From a virus: a stretch of DNA of 24,272 nucleotides. Positions 9,410 to 24,206 of this stretch are shown one piece after another (the first letter of the stretch is position 1; every line of letters starts with the position of its first letter). The stretch lies in the UHGV virus genome UHGV-0102815; one strand, 5' to 3'. Position numbers and translations under genes: made by a program. The notes beneath the pieces were generated by a model, which saw nothing but the letters and a program-made list of their open reading frames with translations, searched no databases and was not told the DNA's origin.

Positions 9410-11176
9410 ATGAACACCACACTGACACCCGCAGATCTCGATCCCCGTCGGCAGGCCATGCTGCTGTACTTTCAGGGATACCGCGTAGCCCGCATTGCTG
9501 AAATGCTGGGCGAGAAAGTTGCAACCGTTCACAGCTGGAAAAAACGCGACAAGTGGGGTGACTATGGGCCGCTGGATCAGATGCAGCTCACTACCGCCGC
9601 ACGCTACTGCCAGCTCATCATGAAGGAGCACAAAGAAGGGAAAGATTTCAAAGAGATTGACCTGCTGGCGCGCCAGTCTGAGCGCCACGCGCGGATCGGC
9701 AAGTTTAACAATGGCGGCAACGAAGCCGACTTAAACCCTAACGTCGCCAACCGCAATAAAGGCCCACGCCGTCAGCCGGAAAAGAATGTTTTCACCGATG
9801 AGCAGATTGAAAAGCTGGAAGAAATCTTCCATTCCTCCATGTTCAACTACCAGCGCCACTGGTGGGAAGCCGGAAAAACCAACCGCATCCGCAACCTGCT
9901 GAAGTCACGCCAGATCGGCGCGACCTTTTACTTTGCCCGTGAAGCCCTGATTGACGCCCTGCTTACCGGACGTAACCAGATTTTCCTTTCTGCCAGTAAG
10001 GCACAGGCCCACGTCTTCAAACAGTACATCATCGACTTTGCCAAAGAAGTGGAGGTGGAGCTGAAAGGCGATCCGATGGTGCTTCCTAACGGGGCCACGC
10101 TTTACTTCCTCGGCACCAATGCCCGCACAGCCCAGAGTTATCACGGCAACCTGTATCTGGATGAATATTTCTGGATCCCAAAATTCCAGGAGTTGCGCAA
10201 AGTGGCTTCCGGTATGGCTATTCACAAGAAATGGCGACAGACCTATTTTTCCACGCCATCCAGCCTGACACACAGTGCTTATCCGTTCTGGTCCGGTGCG
10301 CTGTTCAACCGAGGGCGCAACAAAGCCGATAAGGTGGACATCGACCTGTCCCACAGCAATCTGGCCCCCGGCCTGCTGTGCGCAGACGGGCAATACCGCC
10401 AGATAGTCACCGTGGAAGATGCGGTGCGCGGCGGCTGTAACCTGTTCGACCTCGACCAGTTGCGCATGGAGTACAGCCCGGACGAATACCAGAACCTGCT
10501 GATGTGTGAGTTCGTGGACGATCTCGCGTCCGTGTTCCCGCTCAGCGAGCTGCAGGCGTGCATGGTGGACAGTTGGGAAGTCTGGACCGACTTTCATGCA
10601 CTGGCCCTGCGCCCGTTTGGCTGGCGCGAGGTGTGGATCGGTTATGACCCGGCAAAAGGTACGCAGAACGGCGACAGCGCCGGATGCGTGGTGATGGCAC
10701 CGCCAGCCGTGCCAGGCGGTAAGTTTCGCATTCTTGAGCGTCACCAGTGGCGCGGGATGGACTTCCGCGCCCAGGCTGACGCCATCAAAAAACTGACCGA
10801 ACAGTACAACGTGACCTATATCGGCATCGACTCAACAGGTGTCGGTCACGGGGTTTACGAGAACGTGAAAGCGTTCTTTCCTGCCGTCCGGGAGTTTGTC
10901 TACAACCCCAACGTTAAAAACGCCCTGGTACTCAAAGCCTACGACATTATCAGTCACCGTCGTCTGGAGTTTGACGCCGGACACACCGACATAGCGCAGT
11001 CATTTATGGCAATCCGTCGCGCCACCACCGCCAGTGGCAACCGCCCGACCTATGAAGCCAGCCGCAGCGAAGAAGCCAGCCACGCCGATCTGGCCTGGGC
11101 AACGATGCACGCACTGTTTAACGAACCGCTGCAGGGCGAGTCCGCCAATACCAGCAATATTGTGGAGATTTTTTGA
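9410..11176 (+). CDS. P: Terminase large (ATPase) subunit gpP
   Basis: 588-aa ORF divergent from O and overlapping Q by ATGA; size and position match P2 gpP. Confidence 0.92.
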   Translation: MNTTLTPADLDPRRQAMLLYFQGYRVARIAEMLGEKVATVHSWKKRDKWGDYGPLDQMQLTTAARYCQLIMKEHKEGKDFKEIDLLARQSERHARIGKFNNGGNEADLNPNVANRNKGPRRQPEKNVFTDEQIEKLEEIFHSSMFNYQRHWWEAGKTNRIRNLLKSRQIGATFYFAREALIDALLTGRNQIFLSASKAQAHVFKQYIIDFAKEVEVELKGDPMVLPNGATLYFLGTNARTAQSYHGNLYLDEYFWIPKFQELRKVASGMAIHKKWRQTYFSTPSSLTHSAYPFWSGALFNRGRNKADKVDIDLSHSNLAPGLLCADGQYRQIVTVEDAVRGGCNLFDLDQLRMEYSPDEYQNLLMCEFVDDLASVFPLSELQACMVDSWEVWTDFHALALRPFGWREVWIGYDPAKGTQNGDSAGCVVMAPPAVPGGKFRILERHQWRGMDFRAQADAIKKLTEQYNVTYIGIDSTGVGHGVYENVKAFFPAVREFVYNPNVKNALVLKAYDIISHRRLEFDAGHTDIAQSFMAIRRATTASGNRPTYEASRSEEASHADLAWATMHALFNEPLQGESANTSNIVEIF

Positions 11177-12213
11177 TGGGAAAGAGTAAGAAAAACCGCG
11201 CTGCGGCGACGAATCAGCTCAAGCATAAAAGCCAGACTTCAGCCGAAGCATTCAGCTTCGGTGATCCCGTTCCTGTACTTGACCGCCGCGAACTGCTGGA
11301 CTATGTGGAATGCGTACAGACAGATCGCTGGTATGAGCCTCCTGTCAGCTTTGACGGACTGGCGCGCACCTTCCGCGCTGCCGTGCATCACAGTTCACCA
11401 ATTGCGGTGAAATGCAACATTCTGACCAGCACCTACATCCCTCACCCGCTGCTCAGCCAGCAGGCTTTTTCGCGTTTTGTACAGGACTATCTGGTTTTTG
11501 GTAACGCCTACCTGGAAAAACGCACGAACCGCTTCGGAGAGGTCATCGCTCTTGAGCCTGCGCTGGCAAAATACACCCGACGCGGGTTAGACCTGGATAC
11601 CTACTGGTTTGTGCAATATGGTATGACAACCCAGCCGTATCAGTTCACGAAAGGCAGCATCTTTCATCTGTTGGAACCGGACATCAACCAGGAGATCTAC
11701 GGCCTGCCCGGTTATCTTTCTGCCATTCCGTCCGCTCTGCTCAACGAGTCCGCCACGCTGTTCCGCCGGAAGTATTACATTAACGGTAGTCATGCAGGCT
11801 TCATCATGTACATGACCGATGCCGCGCAAAACCAGGAGGATGTGAACAACCTCCGCAACGCAATGAAAAGCGCCAAAGGTCCAGGCAACTTCCGCAACTT
11901 GTTTATGTACTCGCCTAACGGTAAAAAAGACGGGCTTCAGATCATCCCATTGTCAGAAGTCGCGGCGAAGGATGAATTTCTTAACATCAAGAACGTGAGT
12001 CGGGATGACATGATGGCAGCGCATCGCGTGCCGCCACAAATGATGGGGATTATGCCTAATAATGTCGGGGGGTTTGGGGATGTGGAAAAAGCCGCTCGCG
12101 TTTTTGTACGTAACGAACTGCAGCCATTGCAGAAACGTATGTGCGAACTGAACGAATGGATTGAGGAAAAAGTAATAAATTTTGAAGCGTATCAGCTCTC
12201 AATTGAGCAATAA
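11173..12213 (+). CDS. Q: Portal protein gpQ
   Basis: 346-aa ORF translationally coupled to P (ATGA overlap); size and position match P2 gpQ. Confidence 0.88.
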   Translation: MMGKSKKNRAAATNQLKHKSQTSAEAFSFGDPVPVLDRRELLDYVECVQTDRWYEPPVSFDGLARTFRAAVHHSSPIAVKCNILTSTYIPHPLLSQQAFSRFVQDYLVFGNAYLEKRTNRFGEVIALEPALAKYTRRGLDLDTYWFVQYGMTTQPYQFTKGSIFHLLEPDINQEIYGLPGYLSAIPSALLNESATLFRRKYYINGSHAGFIMYMTDAAQNQEDVNNLRNAMKSAKGPGNFRNLFMYSPNGKKDGLQIIPLSEVAAKDEFLNIKNVSRDDMMAAHRVPPQMMGIMPNNVGGFGDVEKAARVFVRNELQPLQKRMCELNEWIEEKVINFEAYQLSIEQ

Positions 12214-12245: not shown

Positions 12246-12271
12246 AACCTATAGATCAGGGTCTATAGGTT
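12246..12271 (-). terminator. Perfect 10-bp inverted repeat hairpin at the 3' end of the cargo operon, possibly bidirectional with Q
   Basis: aacctataga-tcaggg-tctataggtt; on the minus strand it is followed by agcTTTTgcg; the stop codon of the 215-aa cargo gene lies inside the stem. Confidence 0.45.
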
Positions 12272-12896
12272 TATGATGTAATGATACAGGATAATGCACA
12301 ACTTGATAATCCAGCTTACTTACAGTATGAAGGTGCTGACTATAAAAAACCAAGGGGTTTTTTGGGCAATCAATAATATTAACGGATTTACAAGCATGAA
12401 TCCTAGGTGCATTCTTTGATAAGAATGTTTTCCATGAATCCATCATGTCAGAACAGGAAGCGTTTTTCGTATAAATAATTAAACCACCCGAAGAGCTATT
12501 TATAGTCCCAGTACTATACCGCTCGGTAAGTTGTGCATAACCTTTAAAAAGATATAAATATGAAGAATGTTTTTTAGCTTCCCCATGCCAGATATAATCT
12601 GCAAGGGTAATAGATATATCACAATGTCCTCTCTGGTTCTTCTCGTGACTGGCTTCGAGCCCCAGATATCTATTTTCAATATACGAAAGCAAATATAGAG
12701 TTAACTGATCTTCAGAGAGATCAAAGTTAATTTTATTGCCATTTTGCTCTAATTTACTTACAGCGTAATCCAGCTCCTTTCGAACAAGACTGTTGAAATT
12801 AGAATAGGACTCCAACGCAAATTGAATCCTTTGAATGGCAAAGTGAACCTTCTGCAAATGAAAGTTTTTCTCCAAATCATCCAGACTTGTAAGCAT
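12249..12896 (-). CDS. Cargo operon gene 3: hypothetical protein, 215 aa, no confident family assignment (weak PD-(D/E)xK-like motif)
   Basis: Long ORF in AT-rich DNA; start ATG overlaps the upstream gene's stop (TAATG); segment CDISITLADYIWHGEAKK loosely resembles a nuclease D...ExK motif. Confidence 0.7.
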   Translation of the reverse strand: MLTSLDDLEKNFHLQKVHFAIQRIQFALESYSNFNSLVRKELDYAVSKLEQNGNKINFDLSEDQLTLYLLSYIENRYLGLEASHEKNQRGHCDISITLADYIWHGEAKKHSSYLYLFKGYAQLTERYSTGTINSSSGGLIIYTKNASCSDMMDSWKTFLSKNAPRIHACKSVNIIDCPKNPLVFYSQHLHTVSKLDYQVVHYPVSLHHKPIDPDL

Positions 12897-13324
12897 TAGT
12901 ACGCCCCTTCCTTTGTGAAATTAATAACTGTAAAGAAAGGAAATACATATTTTTTGTAGTCTGGCACAATCTCACCAGTATATGGATGCTCTAAACCTTG
13001 ATTATCTTCAGCATCAATCACGTCCGCAATGCTTATATTAACTGGATCGAAACCATCGTCTATAAATTGATAGTTTAATTTCAAAAAATTAACTTTTGGA
13101 TTACACAAAACTTGGATAGCCAAGTAAATATCATGCTCATCCACTTTAGCGCCCCCCTTATTCGAAATCGCTATATCAAATAAAAGGTTATAACTAATGA
13201 ATATATTAGGAGAGCGAGCTGCTAACTTTGCAAGTTTTTCATAAAACATGCACGCCAAAACTCCCACTTCTGGGCGTTCTGAGCATATGTCTTGTATAGT
13301 CTTTGCCAAGTTAGCATCCTTCAT
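12896..13324 (-). CDS. Cargo operon gene 2: hypothetical protein, 142 aa, function unknown
   Basis: ORF with CTGGAG Shine-Dalgarno 6 nt upstream of ATG 13324; AT-rich; no recognisable motif. Confidence 0.7.
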   Translation of the reverse strand: MKDANLAKTIQDICSERPEVGVLACMFYEKLAKLAARSPNIFISYNLLFDIAISNKGGAKVDEHDIYLAIQVLCNPKVNFLKLNYQFIDDGFDPVNISIADVIDAEDNQGLEHPYTGEIVPDYKKYVFPFFTVINFTKEGAY

Positions 13325-13336
13325 TTTTGTCTCCAG

Positions 13337-14443
13337 CTATAGTATCAGCTTCGTAAGCGTTTCGAAATCATCACGAGAGATACATTTACTAAGTATAGCA
13401 AAATTCACTGGTGAACCAGAGCTTCCACCAAGGTACCGTCTTAGCGTTCCTGGTATAGTAAGTTCTACATTGTCCGCTAACTGTAGTAAAGGATTTGTTC
13501 GCTCAACCCTGATGCCTATCCTATAAAGTCCGATATTGCCTACGGCTTTAATACCTTCTTGATTGAAGATATCTTGTCTCAAATCTTTAGTGGAGTCAGT
13601 TTTCCTTTCCTTATGTGTTGTCCCTTCAGGGGTAAGGAATGAAAGCTCAAAAACTTTATAATTAAGAGTTGAGTATGGTTTTTGATCTTGCTTAAAGATT
13701 GGTTCAATCAAGGGAAAGAAATCTCTTTCTTTTGATGCAAACTCAGCACCTATAATATTATAAAGTTCTCTTACTACAGTACTCTTTGCAAACAAGACGC
13801 TCTCACCTATTGTATTAATACCTGCATCTATCAAAATAGAGATAGTAGAGTTGGTCTTATTAAAAATGCACACATCAAAACATTGATGCTTTTCTTTTTT
13901 AGTAGCAATGATCTCTTCGTAGCCACTGTACTGCGGTAAACTTTTAGGCGAAATCCGCTCTCTAATTTTTTGCTCTCTAACGGAACTAAATAGAGCTAAA
14001 GCCTGATTATTGCTCTCAGAATAATGAACTAAGTTTATTTTATTCTTCCCCGACGCATTAATTTCCTGCTCAGAAAGGATTACATCTGAGGCGACAGAAG
14101 GCTGTTCAGATAAATCCCACTTTAATTTCATAGCCTTTGTTAGCGAGGAAATTATTTGGTTGTCTACTGATAAACAAAAAAAAGCTTTATCACCGTAGAC
14201 CAATTGACCAAATATTAAATTATTTACAGACCTTATGATATCATTAAATTTATTTAAATTCTTTTCCTTTAATTCTGTTAATTCTTCCAGTATTTTTCCA
14301 TGAGTAGCATCTCTACCTTTACCACGAGCTAATCCAAGAGCTGAAATAACAGGTTTTGCCACGTTCCATGGAAATCTCGTGATTAGTGTCAAAATGGATT
14401 TCATTTCTGCTTCACTAAGTACTACTGGGACATTTCCTGTCAT
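13337..14443 (-). CDS. Cargo operon gene 1: hypothetical protein, about 368 aa, with a possible trypsin-like serine-protease signature near the C-terminus
   Basis: Start placed at ATG 14443 (MTGNVPVV...); the track's longer ORF begins at GTG 14470 with no RBS; motif LGGSSGSPV resembles the GxSGxPV catalytic-serine signature of S1 peptidases. Confidence 0.7.
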   Translation of the reverse strand: MTGNVPVVLSEAEMKSILTLITRFPWNVAKPVISALGLARGKGRDATHGKILEELTELKEKNLNKFNDIIRSVNNLIFGQLVYGDKAFFCLSVDNQIISSLTKAMKLKWDLSEQPSVASDVILSEQEINASGKNKINLVHYSESNNQALALFSSVREQKIRERISPKSLPQYSGYEEIIATKKEKHQCFDVCIFNKTNSTISILIDAGINTIGESVLFAKSTVVRELYNIIGAEFASKERDFFPLIEPIFKQDQKPYSTLNYKVFELSFLTPEGTTHKERKTDSTKDLRQDIFNQEGIKAVGNIGLYRIGIRVERTNPLLQLADNVELTIPGTLRRYLGGSSGSPVNFAILSKCISRDDFETLTKLIL

Positions 14444-14586
14444 CTTAATTACCTGTTGAAATTGCAACACAAGGTCGTCTTCGGGAGATCAATGGGAGTA
14501 TTCCAATAACTTACCCAGGTATAGGAGTGCTTTCAAGTCTAAGACTATCTTCTGTCTAACAGCGCATGTTTTCATCTAAGCGCGCG

Positions 14587-20526: not shown

Positions 20527-20730
20527 TTAAGCAGACAAAGCATCAACAGTCAGAGCAGCCAGGTTAATCATTACCTTTTCACGTTTTTTGTCTTTACGAA
20601 GACGATGACGAGGTAGTCGGCCATCAGCCAACATATCGTTAATCGTATCAATAGAAAGGCCAGTCAGTTCGCTATAACGTTCGATTGTGACATGTGGTGT
20701 ATTCAGAGTAATTGAAATGTTAGGTGTCAT
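20527..20730 (-). CDS. apl: Apl/Cox-like small HTH protein (excisionase / switch repressor)
   Basis: 67-aa protein with helix-turn-helix ([19 protein letters not shown]), first gene of the transcript divergent from cI. Confidence 0.7.
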
Positions 20731-20875: not shown

Positions 20876-21445
20876 GTGGATTTCAATAGCGGCGGTAAGA
20901 AAGCCATAGAACGTTTGGTTGAAGCATACGGGTTCGGTACCCGTCAGGCTCTCTGTGATCATTTAGGTGTTTCTAAGAGCACCATGGCAACGCGTTATAT
21001 GCGTGATATTTTTCCGGCAGATTGGGTAATCCAGTGCGCCCTTGAAACGGGTACCTCGCTTAATTGGCTAACAACAGGGCATGGTTCAAAGCAAGCATCA
21101 GCAAATACAAATACTATAGAAGTAGTAAAATATTTATTGTCTGATGGAGCATTGCAGGAAGACGGTTTTTATATTTTTGATAAGGGATTTCTACCCTCTA
21201 CGTTTAAAAAACCTTTTGTCATCACAGATAACAATTCTGAATTTATTTGTGATAAAGAATTTGATGATATACGTGATGGTAAATGGGTAATAAGTATTGA
21301 TGGCGAAATAACAATCCGCGACATCACTCGTTTACCCGGTGGAAGAATTTTCGTTGAAGGTGGAAACAGAGCCTTCGAGTGCAAGATAGAAGATGTTGAA
21401 ATAATTGGAAAAATTATAAGCTTAACAGTTAAGTATGTTAGATAA
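20876..21445 (+). CDS. cI: CI-like immunity repressor (186 CI type)
   Basis: Start placed at GTG 20876 after GGAGGA; translation ...EAYGFGTRQALCDHLGVSKSTMATRYMR...CALETGTSLNWLTTGHG... and C-terminal ...WVISIDGEITIRDITRLPGGRIFVEGG... resemble 186 CI. Confidence 0.8.
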   Translation: MDFNSGGKKAIERLVEAYGFGTRQALCDHLGVSKSTMATRYMRDIFPADWVIQCALETGTSLNWLTTGHGSKQASANTNTIEVVKYLLSDGALQEDGFYIFDKGFLPSTFKKPFVITDNNSEFICDKEFDDIRDGKWVISIDGEITIRDITRLPGGRIFVEGGNRAFECKIEDVEIIGKIISLTVKYVR

Positions 21446-21460
21446 TACCTGGAGGAAACT

Positions 21461-21643
21461 ATGCTTGGTAAGTTTTTTTTTGTGGTTTTATCATGCTCTT
21501 TGCTATTAAACCCACTAACTACCTATGCTAAAAATTATCCTTGTTCTGGGAAAAAGGGAGGTGTCTCTCACTGTACCTCTGATGGAAAATTTGTTTGCAA
21601 TGATGGAACCATCAGTAAATCCAAAAAAACATGCATCAAATAA
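21461..21643 (+). CDS. Small cysteine-rich exported peptide (60-aa precursor)
   Basis: Strong RBS (GGAGGaaact-ATG); N-terminal signal peptide with likely cleavage after TYA; predicted mature 37-aa peptide is Lys-rich with four Cys. Confidence 0.5.
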
Positions 21644-21656
21644 TAAGGAAATATGA

Positions 21657-22988
21657 ATGAGCACAGATATAACTTTCGATATACGTGATGAATATAAAAG
21701 AAAAGCCATTGCAGAAAAAATAATAAGTTTGCTAGAGTCTAATATTCCTGTTTCACCTATGGTCATAGATGGGGACTGGGGGACTGGAAAAACAGAGTTT
21801 TCAAAAAAGTTAGCATCCTTAATTGAAATAAACTCGACCAATCATAAAGTAATTTATATAGATGCTTTTACTGAAGATCACAACGATGCTCCCATACTTA
21901 CAATAATGGCCGCAATTGCAGCTCTATATAATAGCGATGAAAAAAAGGAATTAATATCTAAGGCATTGCCAGCCCTCAGATTCGGACTTAAGACTGTACT
22001 CAAAGCTGGTGCTGGTTGGGTATTAAAACAAAATGCGGATGAAATTAATAAGGAATTTGAAGAGGTTATCAAAGACGCTGCAAATTCAGCTATCGATGGA
22101 ACCATCGAGGCTCTGTTAGAAGATCATATCGAGGCACAAAAGAACGTTCTTGCTCTAAAAGAAGTACTAACCAAATTAGCTGGAGAAAGTAAACTAACAA
22201 TAATTATAGATGAGTTAGACAGATGTAAGCCTAGTTTTGCCATTTCTATTATTGAAAATATAAAACATGTTTTTGATATAAAAAACATTAACTTTTTATT
22301 AATTGCAAACACAACTCAACTAAAAGCATCCATAAATCATATCTATGGCTCTTCTGTAGACTCCAACCGTTATCTTGACAAATTTATAAAATTTACATAC
22401 AGCCTTCCTGTTACCTTTAAGGAAGATAATTATAATGATACTTTAACTTCCAAAAATCATTGGATGATGCTATGTGAGCAATCTGAAAGGCTGACCGCTG
22501 CAGTAGAAGCCAGCGAAGATATTTTCTTACAGTTCATTGAAAGTAGAAAATTATCATTACGTGAGGTTGAAACACTTGCTAGATATGTTGAAATATACCA
22601 ACTACTATCAGGCGACAAAATTAGCAACAAATATATTTATGGATATTGTTATTACAGGACTCTAGCGATAATAATCTACACTTTTAACCGAGAGTTAGCT
22701 CTCAACTTTCTTGAAGATAAAGTTGATGCTCAATCAATCATGAAATTGTTTGGTTTATCTAAATTTTCATATCAAACAAGTGAATATAATGTAGATAATT
22801 ATGAATATGCTATATTTGGAATAGTTTACAAATACTTATCTGAAAACTCATCTCTTTTACCTGCTGAGGAAAATATAAAAAGACAATGGGCAGAAATGAG
22901 TGAATACCATTTTTTAAAAGGTGGTGGCGGTATTGGTGAACCAACAAATATTGTGAAAGATGCTTTAAAAGTTTTTTTACTTCAGTGA
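21657..22988 (+). CDS. KAP-family P-loop NTPase
   Basis: Walker A GDWGTGKT and Walker B IIIDELDRC separated by a long insert, typical of KAP NTPases; AT-rich; inserted between cI and int. Confidence 0.8.
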   Translation: MSTDITFDIRDEYKRKAIAEKIISLLESNIPVSPMVIDGDWGTGKTEFSKKLASLIEINSTNHKVIYIDAFTEDHNDAPILTIMAAIAALYNSDEKKELISKALPALRFGLKTVLKAGAGWVLKQNADEINKEFEEVIKDAANSAIDGTIEALLEDHIEAQKNVLALKEVLTKLAGESKLTIIIDELDRCKPSFAISIIENIKHVFDIKNINFLLIANTTQLKASINHIYGSSVDSNRYLDKFIKFTYSLPVTFKEDNYNDTLTSKNHWMMLCEQSERLTAAVEASEDIFLQFIESRKLSLREVETLARYVEIYQLLSGDKISNKYIYGYCYYRTLAIIIYTFNRELALNFLEDKVDAQSIMKLFGLSKFSYQTSEYNVDNYEYAIFGIVYKYLSENSSLLPAEENIKRQWAEMSEYHFLKGGGGIGEPTNIVKDALKVFLLQ

Positions 22989-23067: not shown

Positions 23068-24120
23068 ATGGCAGTACGAAAACTCACCACAGGAAAATGG
23101 CTTTGCGAATGTTACCCCGCCGGACGTAGTGGACGTCGTGTGCGTAAACAATTCGCCACCAAAGGCGAAGCTCTGGCTTTTGAGCGTCACACGATGGAAG
23201 AAACCGAAGCAAAGCCCTGGCTGGGTGAATCAGTGGATCGTCGAACACTGAAAGACGTGGTTGAACTATGGTTCAAACTACATGGTAAATCTCTGACTGC
23301 TGGGCAGCATGTCTATGACAAATTGCTGCTGATGGCTGACGCTCTGGGCAATCCCCTTGCAACCGATCTCACATCTAAAATGTTTGCCCATTATCGAGAT
23401 AAACGACTGACAGGTGAGATCTACTTCAGCGAGAAATGGAAGAAAGGAGCCAGCCCGGTCACCATTAACCTGGAGCAAAGCTATCTAAGTAGTGTTTTTA
23501 GCGAACTATCCCGTCTGGGCGAATGGTCGTATCCGAACCCACTGGAGAACATGCGAAAATTCACCATCGCAGAAAAAGAGATGGCATGGCTTACCCATGA
23601 GCAGATTGTTGAATTACTGGCTGATTGCAAACGTCAGGACCCAATTCTGGCACTGGTAGTTAAGATATGCTTAAGCACAGGCGCACGCTGGCGAGAAGCC
23701 GTAAATCTTACTCGTTCACAGGTGACCAAATACCGAATTACCTTTGTCAGAACGAAGGGGAAGAAAAACAGAAGCATCCCTATCAGTAAAGAGCTTTACG
23801 AAGAGATCATGGCGCTTGATGGGTTCAATTTCTTCACAGACTGCTATTTTCAATTTTTATCCGTGATGGAAAAAACGTCTATCGTGCTCCCTCGCGGTCA
23901 ACTGACACACGTTCTGCGCCATACGTTTGCGGCGCACTTCATGATGTCGGGTGGAAACATCCTGGCCTTACAAAAAATTCTCGGACACCACGATATAAAA
24001 ATGACTATGCGTTACGCACATCTGGCACCGGATCATCTGGAAACGGCGCTCCGTTTCAATCCTCTGGCAACATTGCCAAGTGGCGACAAAGTGGCGGCAG
24101 CGGTTGGCATTACCCCGTAA
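23068..24120 (+). CDS. int: Tyrosine integrase (P2/186 Int family)
   Basis: Translation from MAVRKLTTGKW...GRSGRRVRKQFATKGEALAFE resembles the P2 Int N-terminus; C-terminus has ARW, HVLRHTFAAHFM and MRYAHL (R-H-R-Y catalytic residues); start at ATG 23068 after GGAGGG. Confidence 0.93.
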   Translation: MAVRKLTTGKWLCECYPAGRSGRRVRKQFATKGEALAFERHTMEETEAKPWLGESVDRRTLKDVVELWFKLHGKSLTAGQHVYDKLLLMADALGNPLATDLTSKMFAHYRDKRLTGEIYFSEKWKKGASPVTINLEQSYLSSVFSELSRLGEWSYPNPLENMRKFTIAEKEMAWLTHEQIVELLADCKRQDPILALVVKICLSTGARWREAVNLTRSQVTKYRITFVRTKGKKNRSIPISKELYEEIMALDGFNFFTDCYFQFLSVMEKTSIVLPRGQLTHVLRHTFAAHFMMSGGNILALQKILGHHDIKMTMRYAHLAPDHLETALRFNPLATLPSGDKVAAAVGITP

Positions 24121-24175: not shown

Positions 24176-24180
24176 CATTA

Positions 24181-24206
24181 ACCCGTTTACATAAATGGGT
24201 TTTTTG
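24181..24206 (+). terminator. Candidate rho-independent terminator after int
   Basis: Hairpin acccgttta-ca-taaatgggt followed by tttttt. Confidence 0.45.

Follow-up and report, generated by a model that had tools for sequence, protein, structure and literature searches.

The small open reading frame between the repressor and KAP NTPase genes of the 24,272-nucleotide viral stretch analysed here (UHGV virus genome UHGV-0102815, hereafter the window) is a genuine gene for an exported protein, and its product is a prophage member of the already named YdcA family. The explanation that we favour overall, with modest confidence, is that this YdcA protein of the lysogeny operon is a predicted periplasmic binding or docking module that perhaps serves in exclusion.

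Family membership is supported by both profile models and existing annotation. Against the NCBIfam model NF007463 the window protein scored 108.8 bits, above the cut-off of 93, and against NF007462, the family's other short single-domain model, it scored 67.6 bits, below the cut-off of 118. We take NF007462 to be the model of chromosomal ydcA. The Pfam family PF27300 (YdcA) has precomputed assignments to the 90% cluster of which the exact window protein is a member and to the gene in identical prophages. RefSeq lists the protein as "YdcA family protein" (WP_001350185.1), so the first-pass remark that small genes of this kind are often missed by annotation does not apply to this one. YdcA homologues do go unannotated in older records (HP2, S2 and some Moraxella and Acinetobacter phages). 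The PHROG families matched, phrog_6000 included (Table 1), all lack an assigned function; PADLOC models and PHROGs with an assigned function gave no match to the small protein, and neither did a Pfam-A copy older than PF27300, even at E <= 1.

The family comprises 1833 homologous clusters. In family members the median start of the YdcA domain is residue 27. The four cysteines and the motifs PCSGxKGG, F[VI]CxDG and SxSKK are all present in the window protein, and the corresponding columns are invariant in alignments of 34 and 77 sequences. Basic residues are 84-91% conserved at three positions of the family, and the domain has a net charge that averages +3.8. E. coli K-12 YdcA, which is chromosomally encoded, resembles the window protein in having a Sec signal followed by a domain of ~35 residues with the identical Cys framework and the same motifs. 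The two genes differ in subfamily and in location: the window gene belongs to the prophage subfamily NF007463 and lies in a cI-int lysogeny operon, whereas K-12 ydcA adjoins cybB. The chromosomal-type mature part encoded at locus L052 is ~14 nonsynonymous sites away from that of the window.

Several other family relationships were considered and rejected. A reading of YdcA as a circular permutant of DUF3761, with the CxDGxxSxS and CSxxGGV segments swapped, gave E 0.65 and 11 bits (cut-off 29) for the permuted sequence. The match to the NCBIfam lpg1681 family, described as a two-transmembrane protein linked to DsbD2, was too weak (E 0.1). Matches to LDL-receptor class A, EGF and TIL domains were treated as noise because they covered only a generic CxxxFxCxNG cysteine pattern.

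The features read from the DNA alone in the first-pass annotation were borne out in detail (Table 1). The good ribosome-binding site that it had proposed is a 7-nt anti-Shine-Dalgarno match, TGGAGGA, 4 nt before the ATG, and the position claimed for the ORF, directly after the repressor, corresponds to a start 15 nt behind the cI stop (21445). The proposed signal peptide has the n-region MLGK, an h-region of 12 residues with a mean Kyte-Doolittle value of 2.74, and the c-region NPLTTYA, with T at -3 and A at -1. The mature product, described as a four-cysteine, lysine-rich peptide of 37 residues, has Cys at 5, 15, 23 and 35, eight Lys and two Asp, giving a computed net charge of +6 and a computed pI of 9.5. 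An AlphaFold2 model of this domain, with a pLDDT of 83, contains two short strands.

At least 90% of aligned homologues keep Ala at -1; elsewhere the signal peptide varies freely in sequence, yet remains hydrophobic, and the mature domain is nearly invariant. The precursor is predicted from its sequence to be exported by Sec and cut after Ala23, and the +6 mature domain is predicted to fold in the periplasm as a small beta-hairpin unit with two disulfides. A lipoprotein was also considered, as VLSC (residues 9-12) resembles a lipobox; Cys12 lies 12 residues from the N-terminus and is missing from most homologues, and because it is not conserved the motif was rejected as a lipobox.

Table 1. 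Features in and around the lysogeny operon; positions are those of the window.
Feature	Position	Strand	Evidence
Apl/Cox-like gene, divergent, marking the lytic/lysogenic switch region	20527..20730	-	Weak HTH_17 and Phage_Cox matches; position as in 186-like prophages
Phage 186-type CI repressor, first gene of the lysogeny operon	20876..21445	+	Phage_CI_repr 3.3e-31, Phage_CI_C 1.6e-28; RefSeq CDS L001 6177-6746
Shine-Dalgarno TGGAGGA	21450..21456	+	Read directly from sequence
ydcA-like gene (60 aa + stop)	21461..21643	+	ORF list, NF007463, phrog_6000 2e-32, RefSeq, PF27300, pN/pS 0.00-0.05
Sec signal peptide, residues 1-23, predicted signal peptidase I cut after TYA	21461..21529	+	
Mature 37-aa domain, 4 invariant Cys, conserved basic positions	21530..21640	+	Alignments, charge analysis, AlphaFold2
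Cargo segment of 1.35 kb between ydcA and int, missing from most prophages of the lineage	21630..22979	.	blastn breakpoints vs L005, L004
KAP-family P-loop NTPase, candidate single-gene defence protein	21657..22988	+	KAP_NTPase 4.7e-53, PADLOC PDC-S20 6.9e-171
Tyrosine integrase, last gene of the operon	23068..24120	+	Int_N 2.8e-32, Phage_integrase 1.1e-21; RefSeq CDS L001 8369-9421
First strong terminator-like hairpin downstream of cI, after int	24180..24201	+	9-bp stem + T run

Substitution patterns provide further evidence that the gene is translated and maintained as a protein. The mature domain shows a pN/pS of 0.03-0.05 against other E. coli prophage alleles, and in the comparison with Kosakonia it differs by 21 synonymous changes of ~22 possible and by no nonsynonymous change. 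By these sequence comparisons, the mature domain is under extreme purifying selection.

Genomic neighborhood analysis places the gene in the lysogeny operon. A scan of the + strand for terminators from cI to int returned a single weak match, a 5-bp hairpin within the KAP gene (22690), and as the first strong hairpin follows int, cI, ydcA, KAP and int are read as one transcription unit. Two weak + strand terminator matches (20990 and 20991) are located inside cI itself, the start of which was taken from the RefSeq annotation of an identical prophage. In all 80 of the closest viral contigs, cI is found 19 nt upstream of the ydcA-like gene, and the order cI-ydcA-int is common to E. coli B, Kosakonia and Yersinia; it is the invariant layout of this lineage of 186/P2-type prophages. 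The first-pass annotation had named absence of the ORF from matching inserts as evidence against it, and the ORF proved to be kept in each of these 80 contigs and in ~630 E. coli genomes, with or without KAP.

A comparable arrangement recurs in other genera. In Haemophilus phage HP2 the ATG of the homologue shares the final base of the cI ORF; the HP2 record annotates a promoter, pL, upstream of the equivalent operon, driving the lysogeny-maintenance genes. The gene that follows the HP2 homologue encodes a signal-peptide OB-fold protein (tRNA_anti-like, 2.8e-13). In ~8 further species the ydcA homologue lies one or two genes behind an HTH_3/S24-type repressor. From the operon structure, together with knowledge of phage 186, we infer that the YdcA-like protein is made in lysogens alongside the repressor.

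The wider distribution of the family combines mobile and chromosomal contexts. At least 534 viral contigs in IMG/VR encode a YdcA relative. The gene is located among the tail genes in Moraxella phages, Acinetobacter phages and plasmids also have it, and it is present on plasmids of only 4.1 and 5.4 kb. Many of the temperate phages and small plasmids that bear it belong to naturally competent genera (Haemophilus, Moraxella, Acinetobacter, Neisseria and Psychrobacter). The chromosomal paralogue ydcA occupies a fixed locus beside cybB in E. coli and related species, and at ~60 of the 80 species-level loci the family gene has no obvious prophage around it. A universal conserved neighbour was sought in the family loci and none was found; the commonest neighbours were phage repressors (6/76 upstream), integrases (6/78 downstream) and cytochrome b561 (5 upstream).

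Domain architecture further connects the family to nucleases. Behind a signal peptide, the YdcA domain forms the N-terminal part of fusions to SNase (P0113), Endonuclease_NS (P0152) and a PLD-type nuclease (P0189). Among ~150 representatives, three such nuclease fusions were confirmed by Pfam and two more were judged by eye; they are few, and equally compatible with an anchoring role. At another locus (L074) an SNase gene lies directly downstream of the YdcA gene, and some family members contain two or three tandem copies of the domain. Some secreted or periplasmic nucleases carry YdcA as an accessory N-terminal module or, for SNase, have its gene adjoining. The window differs from the fusions in that its YdcA domain stands alone, with no nuclease nearby.

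The only relative with a solved structure, and a probable one, is Dis2 (Lpg0823, 7muc_AN), a component of the Legionella Dot/Icm system. It is the best PDB match by sequence profile, at E 5.4e-5 with the full profile, and a Foldseek search with the AlphaFold2 model ranked it first of 350,542 chains (TM 0.62, rmsd 1.9 A, 39% identity). A fragment of a Dis2 orthologue also carries PF27300. With signal peptides removed from the profile, however, the match falls to E 0.05, the same level as spurious LDL-receptor repeats, and in phmmer searches of the PDB with tandem-domain members, P0068 retrieved nothing and P0066 retrieved Dis2 at E 0.037 only. Because no single test carries the link, it rests on profile, fold and Pfam combined, and on that combination YdcA is probably homologous to the lobes of Dis2.

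Dis2 resembles the predicted window product in being a small, Sec-exported, disulfide-pinned periplasmic protein, and both its lobe 1 (CCSKMGGINYC..GRLVCNNGFYS) and its lobe 2 (..GLVVCNDGYVS) align with the YdcA motifs. The lobes are without YdcA's conserved lysines. Dis2 forms part of a type IV secretion system, whereas the window encodes no such system, and no type IV secretion genes were found either there or in the neighbour census. Dis2 also has two lobes and five disulfides (PMC8486379), compared with one domain and two predicted disulfides in the window protein. [quoted passage not shown] It was published as Legionella-specific and without homologues (PMC8486379, PMC12716638). Our results suggest that it is not Legionella-specific.

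The proposal of YdcA as a self-contained domain that binds or docks in the periplasm is drawn from the nuclease fusions, the adjacent SNase gene, the tandem copies, the OB-fold neighbour in HP2 and the conserved basic residues, and also from the location of Dis2, which docks on a type IV secretion system at the outer-membrane cap. As a general role for YdcA, binding or docking is plausible, and we hold it tentatively. The conserved basic residues of GKKGG and SxSKK would contact a polyanion such as DNA, or a machine close to the outer membrane. Expressed on its own from a prophage or plasmid, the protein would change what enters the lysogen, leading to exclusion of an incoming phage or of foreign DNA. 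That YdcA acts in exclusion specifically is a more speculative step, to which we assign a rather low probability.

Envelope-acting proteins for superinfection exclusion or lysogenic conversion are established phage cargo, as exemplified by T4 Sp and Imm, lambdoid Cor, T5 Llp and HK97 gp15. Like these, the YdcA protein is small, predicted to be exported and encoded by temperate phages, its gene is placed for expression from the prophage, and it occupies accessory positions in unrelated phages. It is related in sequence to none of them and, unlike them, is represented by numerous homologues at chromosomal sites without recognisable phage or plasmid surroundings.

In its most far-reaching form the proposal would make YdcA a minimal (~4 kDa) periplasmic module that binds DNA or docks on a DNA conduit, either attached to nucleases or produced alone from the maintenance operons of mobile elements, and that blocks incoming DNA. 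The stand-alone protein would then intercept or block DNA that comes in through superinfection, transformation or conjugation. We consider this form unlikely. A protected conduit normally takes phage DNA across the periplasm, so the effect of a free DNA binder would be limited.

The main alternative is that the prophage YdcA is a factor for envelope fitness: as a polycationic mini-protein of the periplasm, it would keep the envelope stable during stress from acid or organic acids and so give the lysogen a growth benefit. Deletion of ydcA in E. coli W severely reduced growth in 300 mM 3-hydroxypropionate, and the gene was reported to be induced at pH 5 under YdcI control (PMC7642389), which points to envelope stress rather than exclusion. 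The chromosomal paralogue beside cybB likewise argues for a housekeeping role in the envelope, most family members are in ordinary chromosomal contexts without a shared neighbour, and the conserved cationic surface could bind the phosphates of LPS or phospholipids. This reading nevertheless draws on one indirect study, and a search of the literature on YdcA function found only that 3-hydroxypropionate phenotype and expression tables. It leaves unexplained both the fusions to three nuclease families and the recurrent placement of the gene in repressor operons, as phage cargo and on tiny plasmids. Moreover, the prophage copy is recognised by the other NCBIfam model, passing NF007463 and falling short of NF007462. 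An envelope-fitness role for the prophage copy is a real but minority prospect.

The relationship to Dis2 raises a second alternative, in which the window peptide is an accessory docking subunit of a secretin, a type IV pilus, a type IV secretion system or an outer-membrane lipoprotein complex, tuning that machine, and its ligand is not DNA. The first rank of Dis2 in both the profile and the Foldseek searches, the PF27300 domain on its orthologue fragment, and its location near the outer membrane in contact with Dot proteins are all in keeping with such a subunit, and in part of the UniRef entries the prophage protein goes under the name "Conjugal transfer protein". That name has no traceable basis, however, and secretion-system genes are not near the YdcA gene in the window or at most loci. 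The loss of profile significance once signal peptides are removed, together with the missing lysines of the Dis2 lobes, further weakens this alternative, which we regard as quite improbable.

The first-pass annotation had also raised the idea of an exported toxin, a bacteriocin or a signalling peptide released from the lysogen. The product is indeed small, cationic, rich in cysteine and predicted to be exported, and all of this would suit such a peptide. Its leader is of the Sec type with a TYA site, however, not of the double-glycine type, and because this is a plain Sec leader in a Gram-negative cell the product is expected to stay in the periplasm. The adjoining genes are cI, KAP and int; no gene for immunity, for maturation or processing, or for ABC-type or other dedicated export adjoins it. 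That E. coli and related species have a paralogue at a constant place on the chromosome is also out of keeping with a released peptide and, unlike bacteriocins, the YdcA domain doubles as an N-terminal module of larger enzymes. The idea is not supported: a toxin role for YdcA-like proteins is unlikely, and release of this peptide as a toxin, bacteriocin or signal is highly improbable.

The neighbouring KAP NTPase gene is a separate cargo insertion and is independent of the small gene. In 75 of the 80 closest viral contigs, int follows ydcA after ~200 bp with no KAP gene, and 3 of the 80 have it. Among complete E. coli genomes, ~630 contain the small gene after cI and 34 contain KAP (~18-fold fewer), and at none of the 80 species-level YdcA loci does a KAP gene lie nearby. 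The left junction of the cargo falls inside the last codons of the ydcA-like gene, which ends in TCIK* here and in ICTKNSR* in KAP-less alleles; at the same insertion site, L004 contains ISEc53 and a ClbS/DfsB gene. The KAP protein has weaker PADLOC matches to PifA and QatA beside its match to PDC-S20, which we take to be a single-gene candidate from the S in its name. No transmembrane segment was predicted in it (maximum 19-residue hydropathy 0.93). Reve, a KAP-domain defence system from P4 satellite hotspots, has been described as single-gene (PMC13586616) and offers a precedent for KAP-based defence with one gene. The earlier suggestion that the peptide is an obligate periplasmic partner of the KAP NTPase in a two-gene defence system draws on the adjacency of the two genes (13 nt apart), on a collinear pair in a Kosakonia prophage (72% nucleotide identity) and on the junction within the 3' end of the small gene, and is barely credible given how much commoner the small gene is, the absence of KAP from most contigs and from the 80 species-level loci, a KAP protein without a membrane segment, its PDC-S20 match and the Reve precedent.

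These results show that, in several genera, a 37-residue predicted periplasmic domain under strong constraint is a fixture of the repressor-integrase operon of P2/186-type prophages, and that its gene recurs as cargo of other phages and of tiny plasmids. The KAP gene may now be regarded as single-gene cargo of a minor hotspot in P2-type prophages. For the YdcA family, the fusions to three nuclease families and the periplasmic OB-fold neighbour in HP2 are first functional leads. If the proposed binding and exclusion role is true, YdcA would constitute a new and very widespread class of exclusion factor encoded by mobile elements, and Legionella Dis2, published as species-specific, would be a duplicated member of the YdcA family.

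The small gene between the repressor and the KAP-family NTPase gene is a true YdcA family member, and every defining feature tested was found in it. Its protein matches the NCBIfam model NF007463 at 108.8 bits (cut-off 93) and phrog_6000 at 2e-32, and an identical gene is present in RefSeq as WP_001350185.1, "YdcA family protein". The local Pfam copy, which is older than PF27300 (YdcA), gave no match for the protein; PF27300 is recorded for its cluster in a large protein collection. As an object, the gene is already known and annotated. The remark in the first-pass annotation that such genes are often missed therefore fails for the window gene, but holds for its homologues in Haemophilus phages HP2 and S2, which are unannotated. 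The gene lies outside all known defence, exclusion and bacteriocin families.

The basic reading of the ORF was borne out in its position, strand and length, its strong ribosome-binding site and its place directly after the repressor (see table), and the interpretation placed on it held up in part. By sequence features, residues 1-23 form a textbook Sec signal, the canonical signal peptide seen at first pass, with the n-region MLGK, a 12-residue hydrophobic core of hydropathy 2.74 and the c-region NPLTTYA (T at -3, A at -1). The mature product of 37 aa likewise contains the four cysteines (positions 5, 15, 23 and 35) and many lysines (eight) described earlier; charge analysis gives a pI of 9.5 and a net charge of +6. 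In the AlphaFold2 model the mature part is predicted to form two short strands with a pLDDT of 83, which is confident for such a small protein. The protein is directly predicted to be exported, processed and disulfide-stabilised.

Coordinates of features in the window and in retrieved loci (L numbers)
Feature	Position	Strand	Remark
Three consecutive ORFs	12249..14470	-	214, 141 and 376 aa
Portal gene	11173..12213		
CI repressor	20876..21445	+	stop codon 15 nt before the ydcA-like ATG
Shine-Dalgarno site TGGAGGA	21450-21456	+	near-perfect; 4 nt upstream of ATG
ydcA-like ORF	21461..21643	+	60 aa, from ORF list
KAP segment	21630..22979		1.35-kb replacement; left junction within the final codons of the ydcA-like ORF
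KAP-family NTPase	21657..22988	+	
Weak 5-bp hairpin	22690	+	within the KAP gene
Integrase (int)	23068..24120	+	
HP2 orf1(S)	L002 4112..4876		
E. coli N32 prophage cargo	L004 4389..6146		ISEc53 and ClbS/DfsB-family gene
Secreted SNase gene	L074 6210..6899		directly downstream of YdcA gene
Membrane-anchored neighbour family	L092 3626..4264, L094 878..1609, L095 1281..2240, L026 5237..5989		
Possible further members	L028 6139..7137, L066 6147..7016		

A check for loss of the ORF from otherwise identical inserts firmly favours a gene, because the alignments show a mature domain that is almost frozen beside a freely variable signal peptide. Codon comparison with other E. coli prophage alleles gives a pN/pS of 0.03-0.05 for the mature domain, which differs from the Kosakonia copy at 21 of about 22 synonymous sites and at no nonsynonymous site. 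The ydcA-like ORF is a genuine gene and strongly constrained.

The window corresponds to the left arm of a 186/P2-type prophage, integrated beside rcdA. On the plus strand, cI, the small gene, the KAP gene and int follow one another, with gaps of 15 and 13 nt on the two sides of the small gene. The sole strong plus-strand terminator-like hairpin in the terminator scan lies past int, and between cI and int the only other match was the weak hairpin in the KAP gene. The small gene is directly predicted to share an operon with the repressor.

The proposal that the small protein is a periplasmic partner of the KAP NTPase is not supported by their distribution. At 90% nucleotide identity or more, the small gene occurs in about 630 of 5426 complete E. 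coli genomes, the KAP gene in only 34. The usual layout is cI-ydcA-int, as in E. coli B. Among the 80 closest IMG/VR viral contigs, cI lies 19 nt upstream of ydcA in every one, int about 200 bp downstream in 75 and KAP in 3, and none of 80 species-level YdcA family loci has a KAP neighbour. The small gene is thus directly predicted to be independent of KAP. The left junction of the KAP segment explains why the small protein ends in TCIK-stop in the window and ICTKNSR-stop elsewhere. A Kosakonia prophage has a collinear cI-ydcA-KAP-int arrangement (72% nucleotide identity; KAP protein 69% identical), so the pairing is old in one lineage.

The ydcA-int junction behaves as a small cargo hotspot, since in the E. 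coli N32 prophage the place taken by KAP in the window holds ISEc53 and a ClbS/DfsB-family gene (DUF1706, 3.1e-53). A recent survey of P2-like phages counts the interval between integrase and primase among the minor defence hotspots (PMC13586616). The KAP protein gives a nearly full-length match to the PADLOC candidate PDC-S20 (6.9e-171) and weaker PADLOC matches to PifA and QatA. Hydropathy analysis predicts no membrane segment in it, unlike the many KAP-family NTPases for which a membrane-spanning insert has been described. Elsewhere in the window, the classic P2 old/tin defence hotspot, between the portal gene and the DinI-like and gpA replication genes, is occupied by three consecutive minus-strand ORFs. 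Neither Pfam nor PADLOC gives a match to any of them, so they may form a cargo or defence module not yet characterised.

Profile searches recovered 1833 YdcA clusters at 90% identity and 429 representatives at 50% identity; most of the 80 species-level loci belong to Alpha-, Beta- or Gammaproteobacteria and a few to Myxococcota. No universal neighbour was found across these loci. The most frequent neighbours are 186-type CI repressors upstream (8 of 80 loci by tblastn), integrases downstream, and cytochrome b561, which marks the chromosomal E. coli ydcA locus. Neighbour clustering revealed a second group of about 8 loci, in which an HTH_3/Peptidase_S24 repressor lies one or two genes upstream of the YdcA gene; several also hold a P2 gpA-like replication gene. 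In HP2 and S2 the annotated lysogeny promoter pL precedes the 60-aa homologue, which begins on the final base of the cI ORF and is followed by orf1(S) and int. The product of HP2 orf1(S) combines a signal peptide with a tRNA_anti-like OB fold (PF12869, 2.8e-13), and is therefore a second predicted periplasmic protein in that lysogeny operon, of a nucleic-acid-binding fold type.

Other carriers are diverse. In Moraxella catarrhalis phages the gene lies among the tail genes, a classic place for accessory cargo. It is also present in Acinetobacter phages and plasmids, and is among the few cargo genes of a 4.1-kb Acinetobacter soli plasmid and a 5.4-kb Psychrobacter plasmid. Its neighbour in both of these plasmids, phage Mcat15 and a Comamonas locus belongs to an N-terminally membrane-anchored protein family with no Pfam or PADLOC match, possibly a recurrent partner there. 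Given such varied carriers, the YdcA gene is a self-contained unit acquired by very different mobile elements, often placed in the part expressed during stable carriage.

The domain is also found fused to three unrelated nuclease families. In these longer family members it stands behind the signal peptide and is joined to a staphylococcal-nuclease (SNase) domain in P0113 (4.8e-24), to a DNA/RNA non-specific endonuclease (Endonuclease_NS) domain in P0152 (6.2e-24) and to a PLD-type nuclease domain in P0189 (5.1e-19); in two further fragments (P0212, P0206) the likeness to Endonuclease_NS was judged by eye alone. One locus has a secreted SNase gene directly downstream of its YdcA gene. Other members carry two or three tandem YdcA copies separated by Lys/Ser-rich linkers, and 14 (P0057-P0061, P0087 and 8 others) end in a CxC(x5-6)CxGPRGGxYC...GxKSY module, also noted in a CTGPRGG form, for which the PBCV basic adaptor domain is only a faint match (E 0.11). 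Conservation lies at 84-91% for three basic positions of the YdcA domain, whose net charge averages +3.8.

Among solved structures, the best match by both sequence profile and Foldseek is chain AN of 7MUC/7MUD, the Legionella Dot/Icm component Dis2 (Lpg0823). The full-profile E value of 5.4e-5 includes a contribution from aligned signal peptides; with these removed it is 0.05, no better than spurious LDL-receptor repeats. The alignment spans the distinctive CSKxGGIxxC motif, the Dis2 orthologue fragment P0295 has a precomputed PF27300 match, and Foldseek, queried with the AlphaFold2 model, ranked Dis2 first of 350,542 chains (TM 0.62, rmsd 1.9 A, 39% identity). Homology between YdcA and Dis2 is therefore probable. 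Dis2, built of two lobes with five disulfides, lies close to the outer membrane (PMC8486379) and contacts DotD, DotK and DotC (PMC12716638). Contrary to its published description as Legionella-specific and without structural relatives (PMC8486379, PMC12716638), Dis2 (chain AN; P0295, P0296) appears to be a tandem pair of YdcA-like domains.

We tentatively propose that the YdcA domain acts in the periplasm as a module for binding or docking. A polyanionic ligand such as DNA is favoured by the fusions to nucleases, by the conservation of basic residues and by the OB-fold protein next door in HP2, and Dis2 favours docking onto an outer-membrane-proximal protein complex; the two readings are not exclusive. 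For a copy that stands alone and is expressed constitutively from a prophage or plasmid, the most coherent role would be interference with incoming phage or foreign DNA, a role that is itself rather doubtful. The main rival, to which we likewise give a low probability, is a role in envelope stress, as hinted for chromosomal ydcA, whose deletion makes E. coli W sensitive to 3-hydroxypropionate and which is reported to be acid-induced (PMC7642389). The exported toxin, bacteriocin-like or signalling peptide first suggested for the gene is unlikely: the leader is a Sec signal, immunity and export genes are absent, the E. coli chromosome retains a paralogue, and enzymes contain the domain as a module.

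What is new is contextual: ydcA is a constant part of the lysogeny operon in several genera, phages and plasmids carry it recurrently, its domain is fused to nucleases, and it is probably related to Dis2. The small gene is ordinary in itself, yet offers a cheap and well-defined way into the widespread YdcA family.
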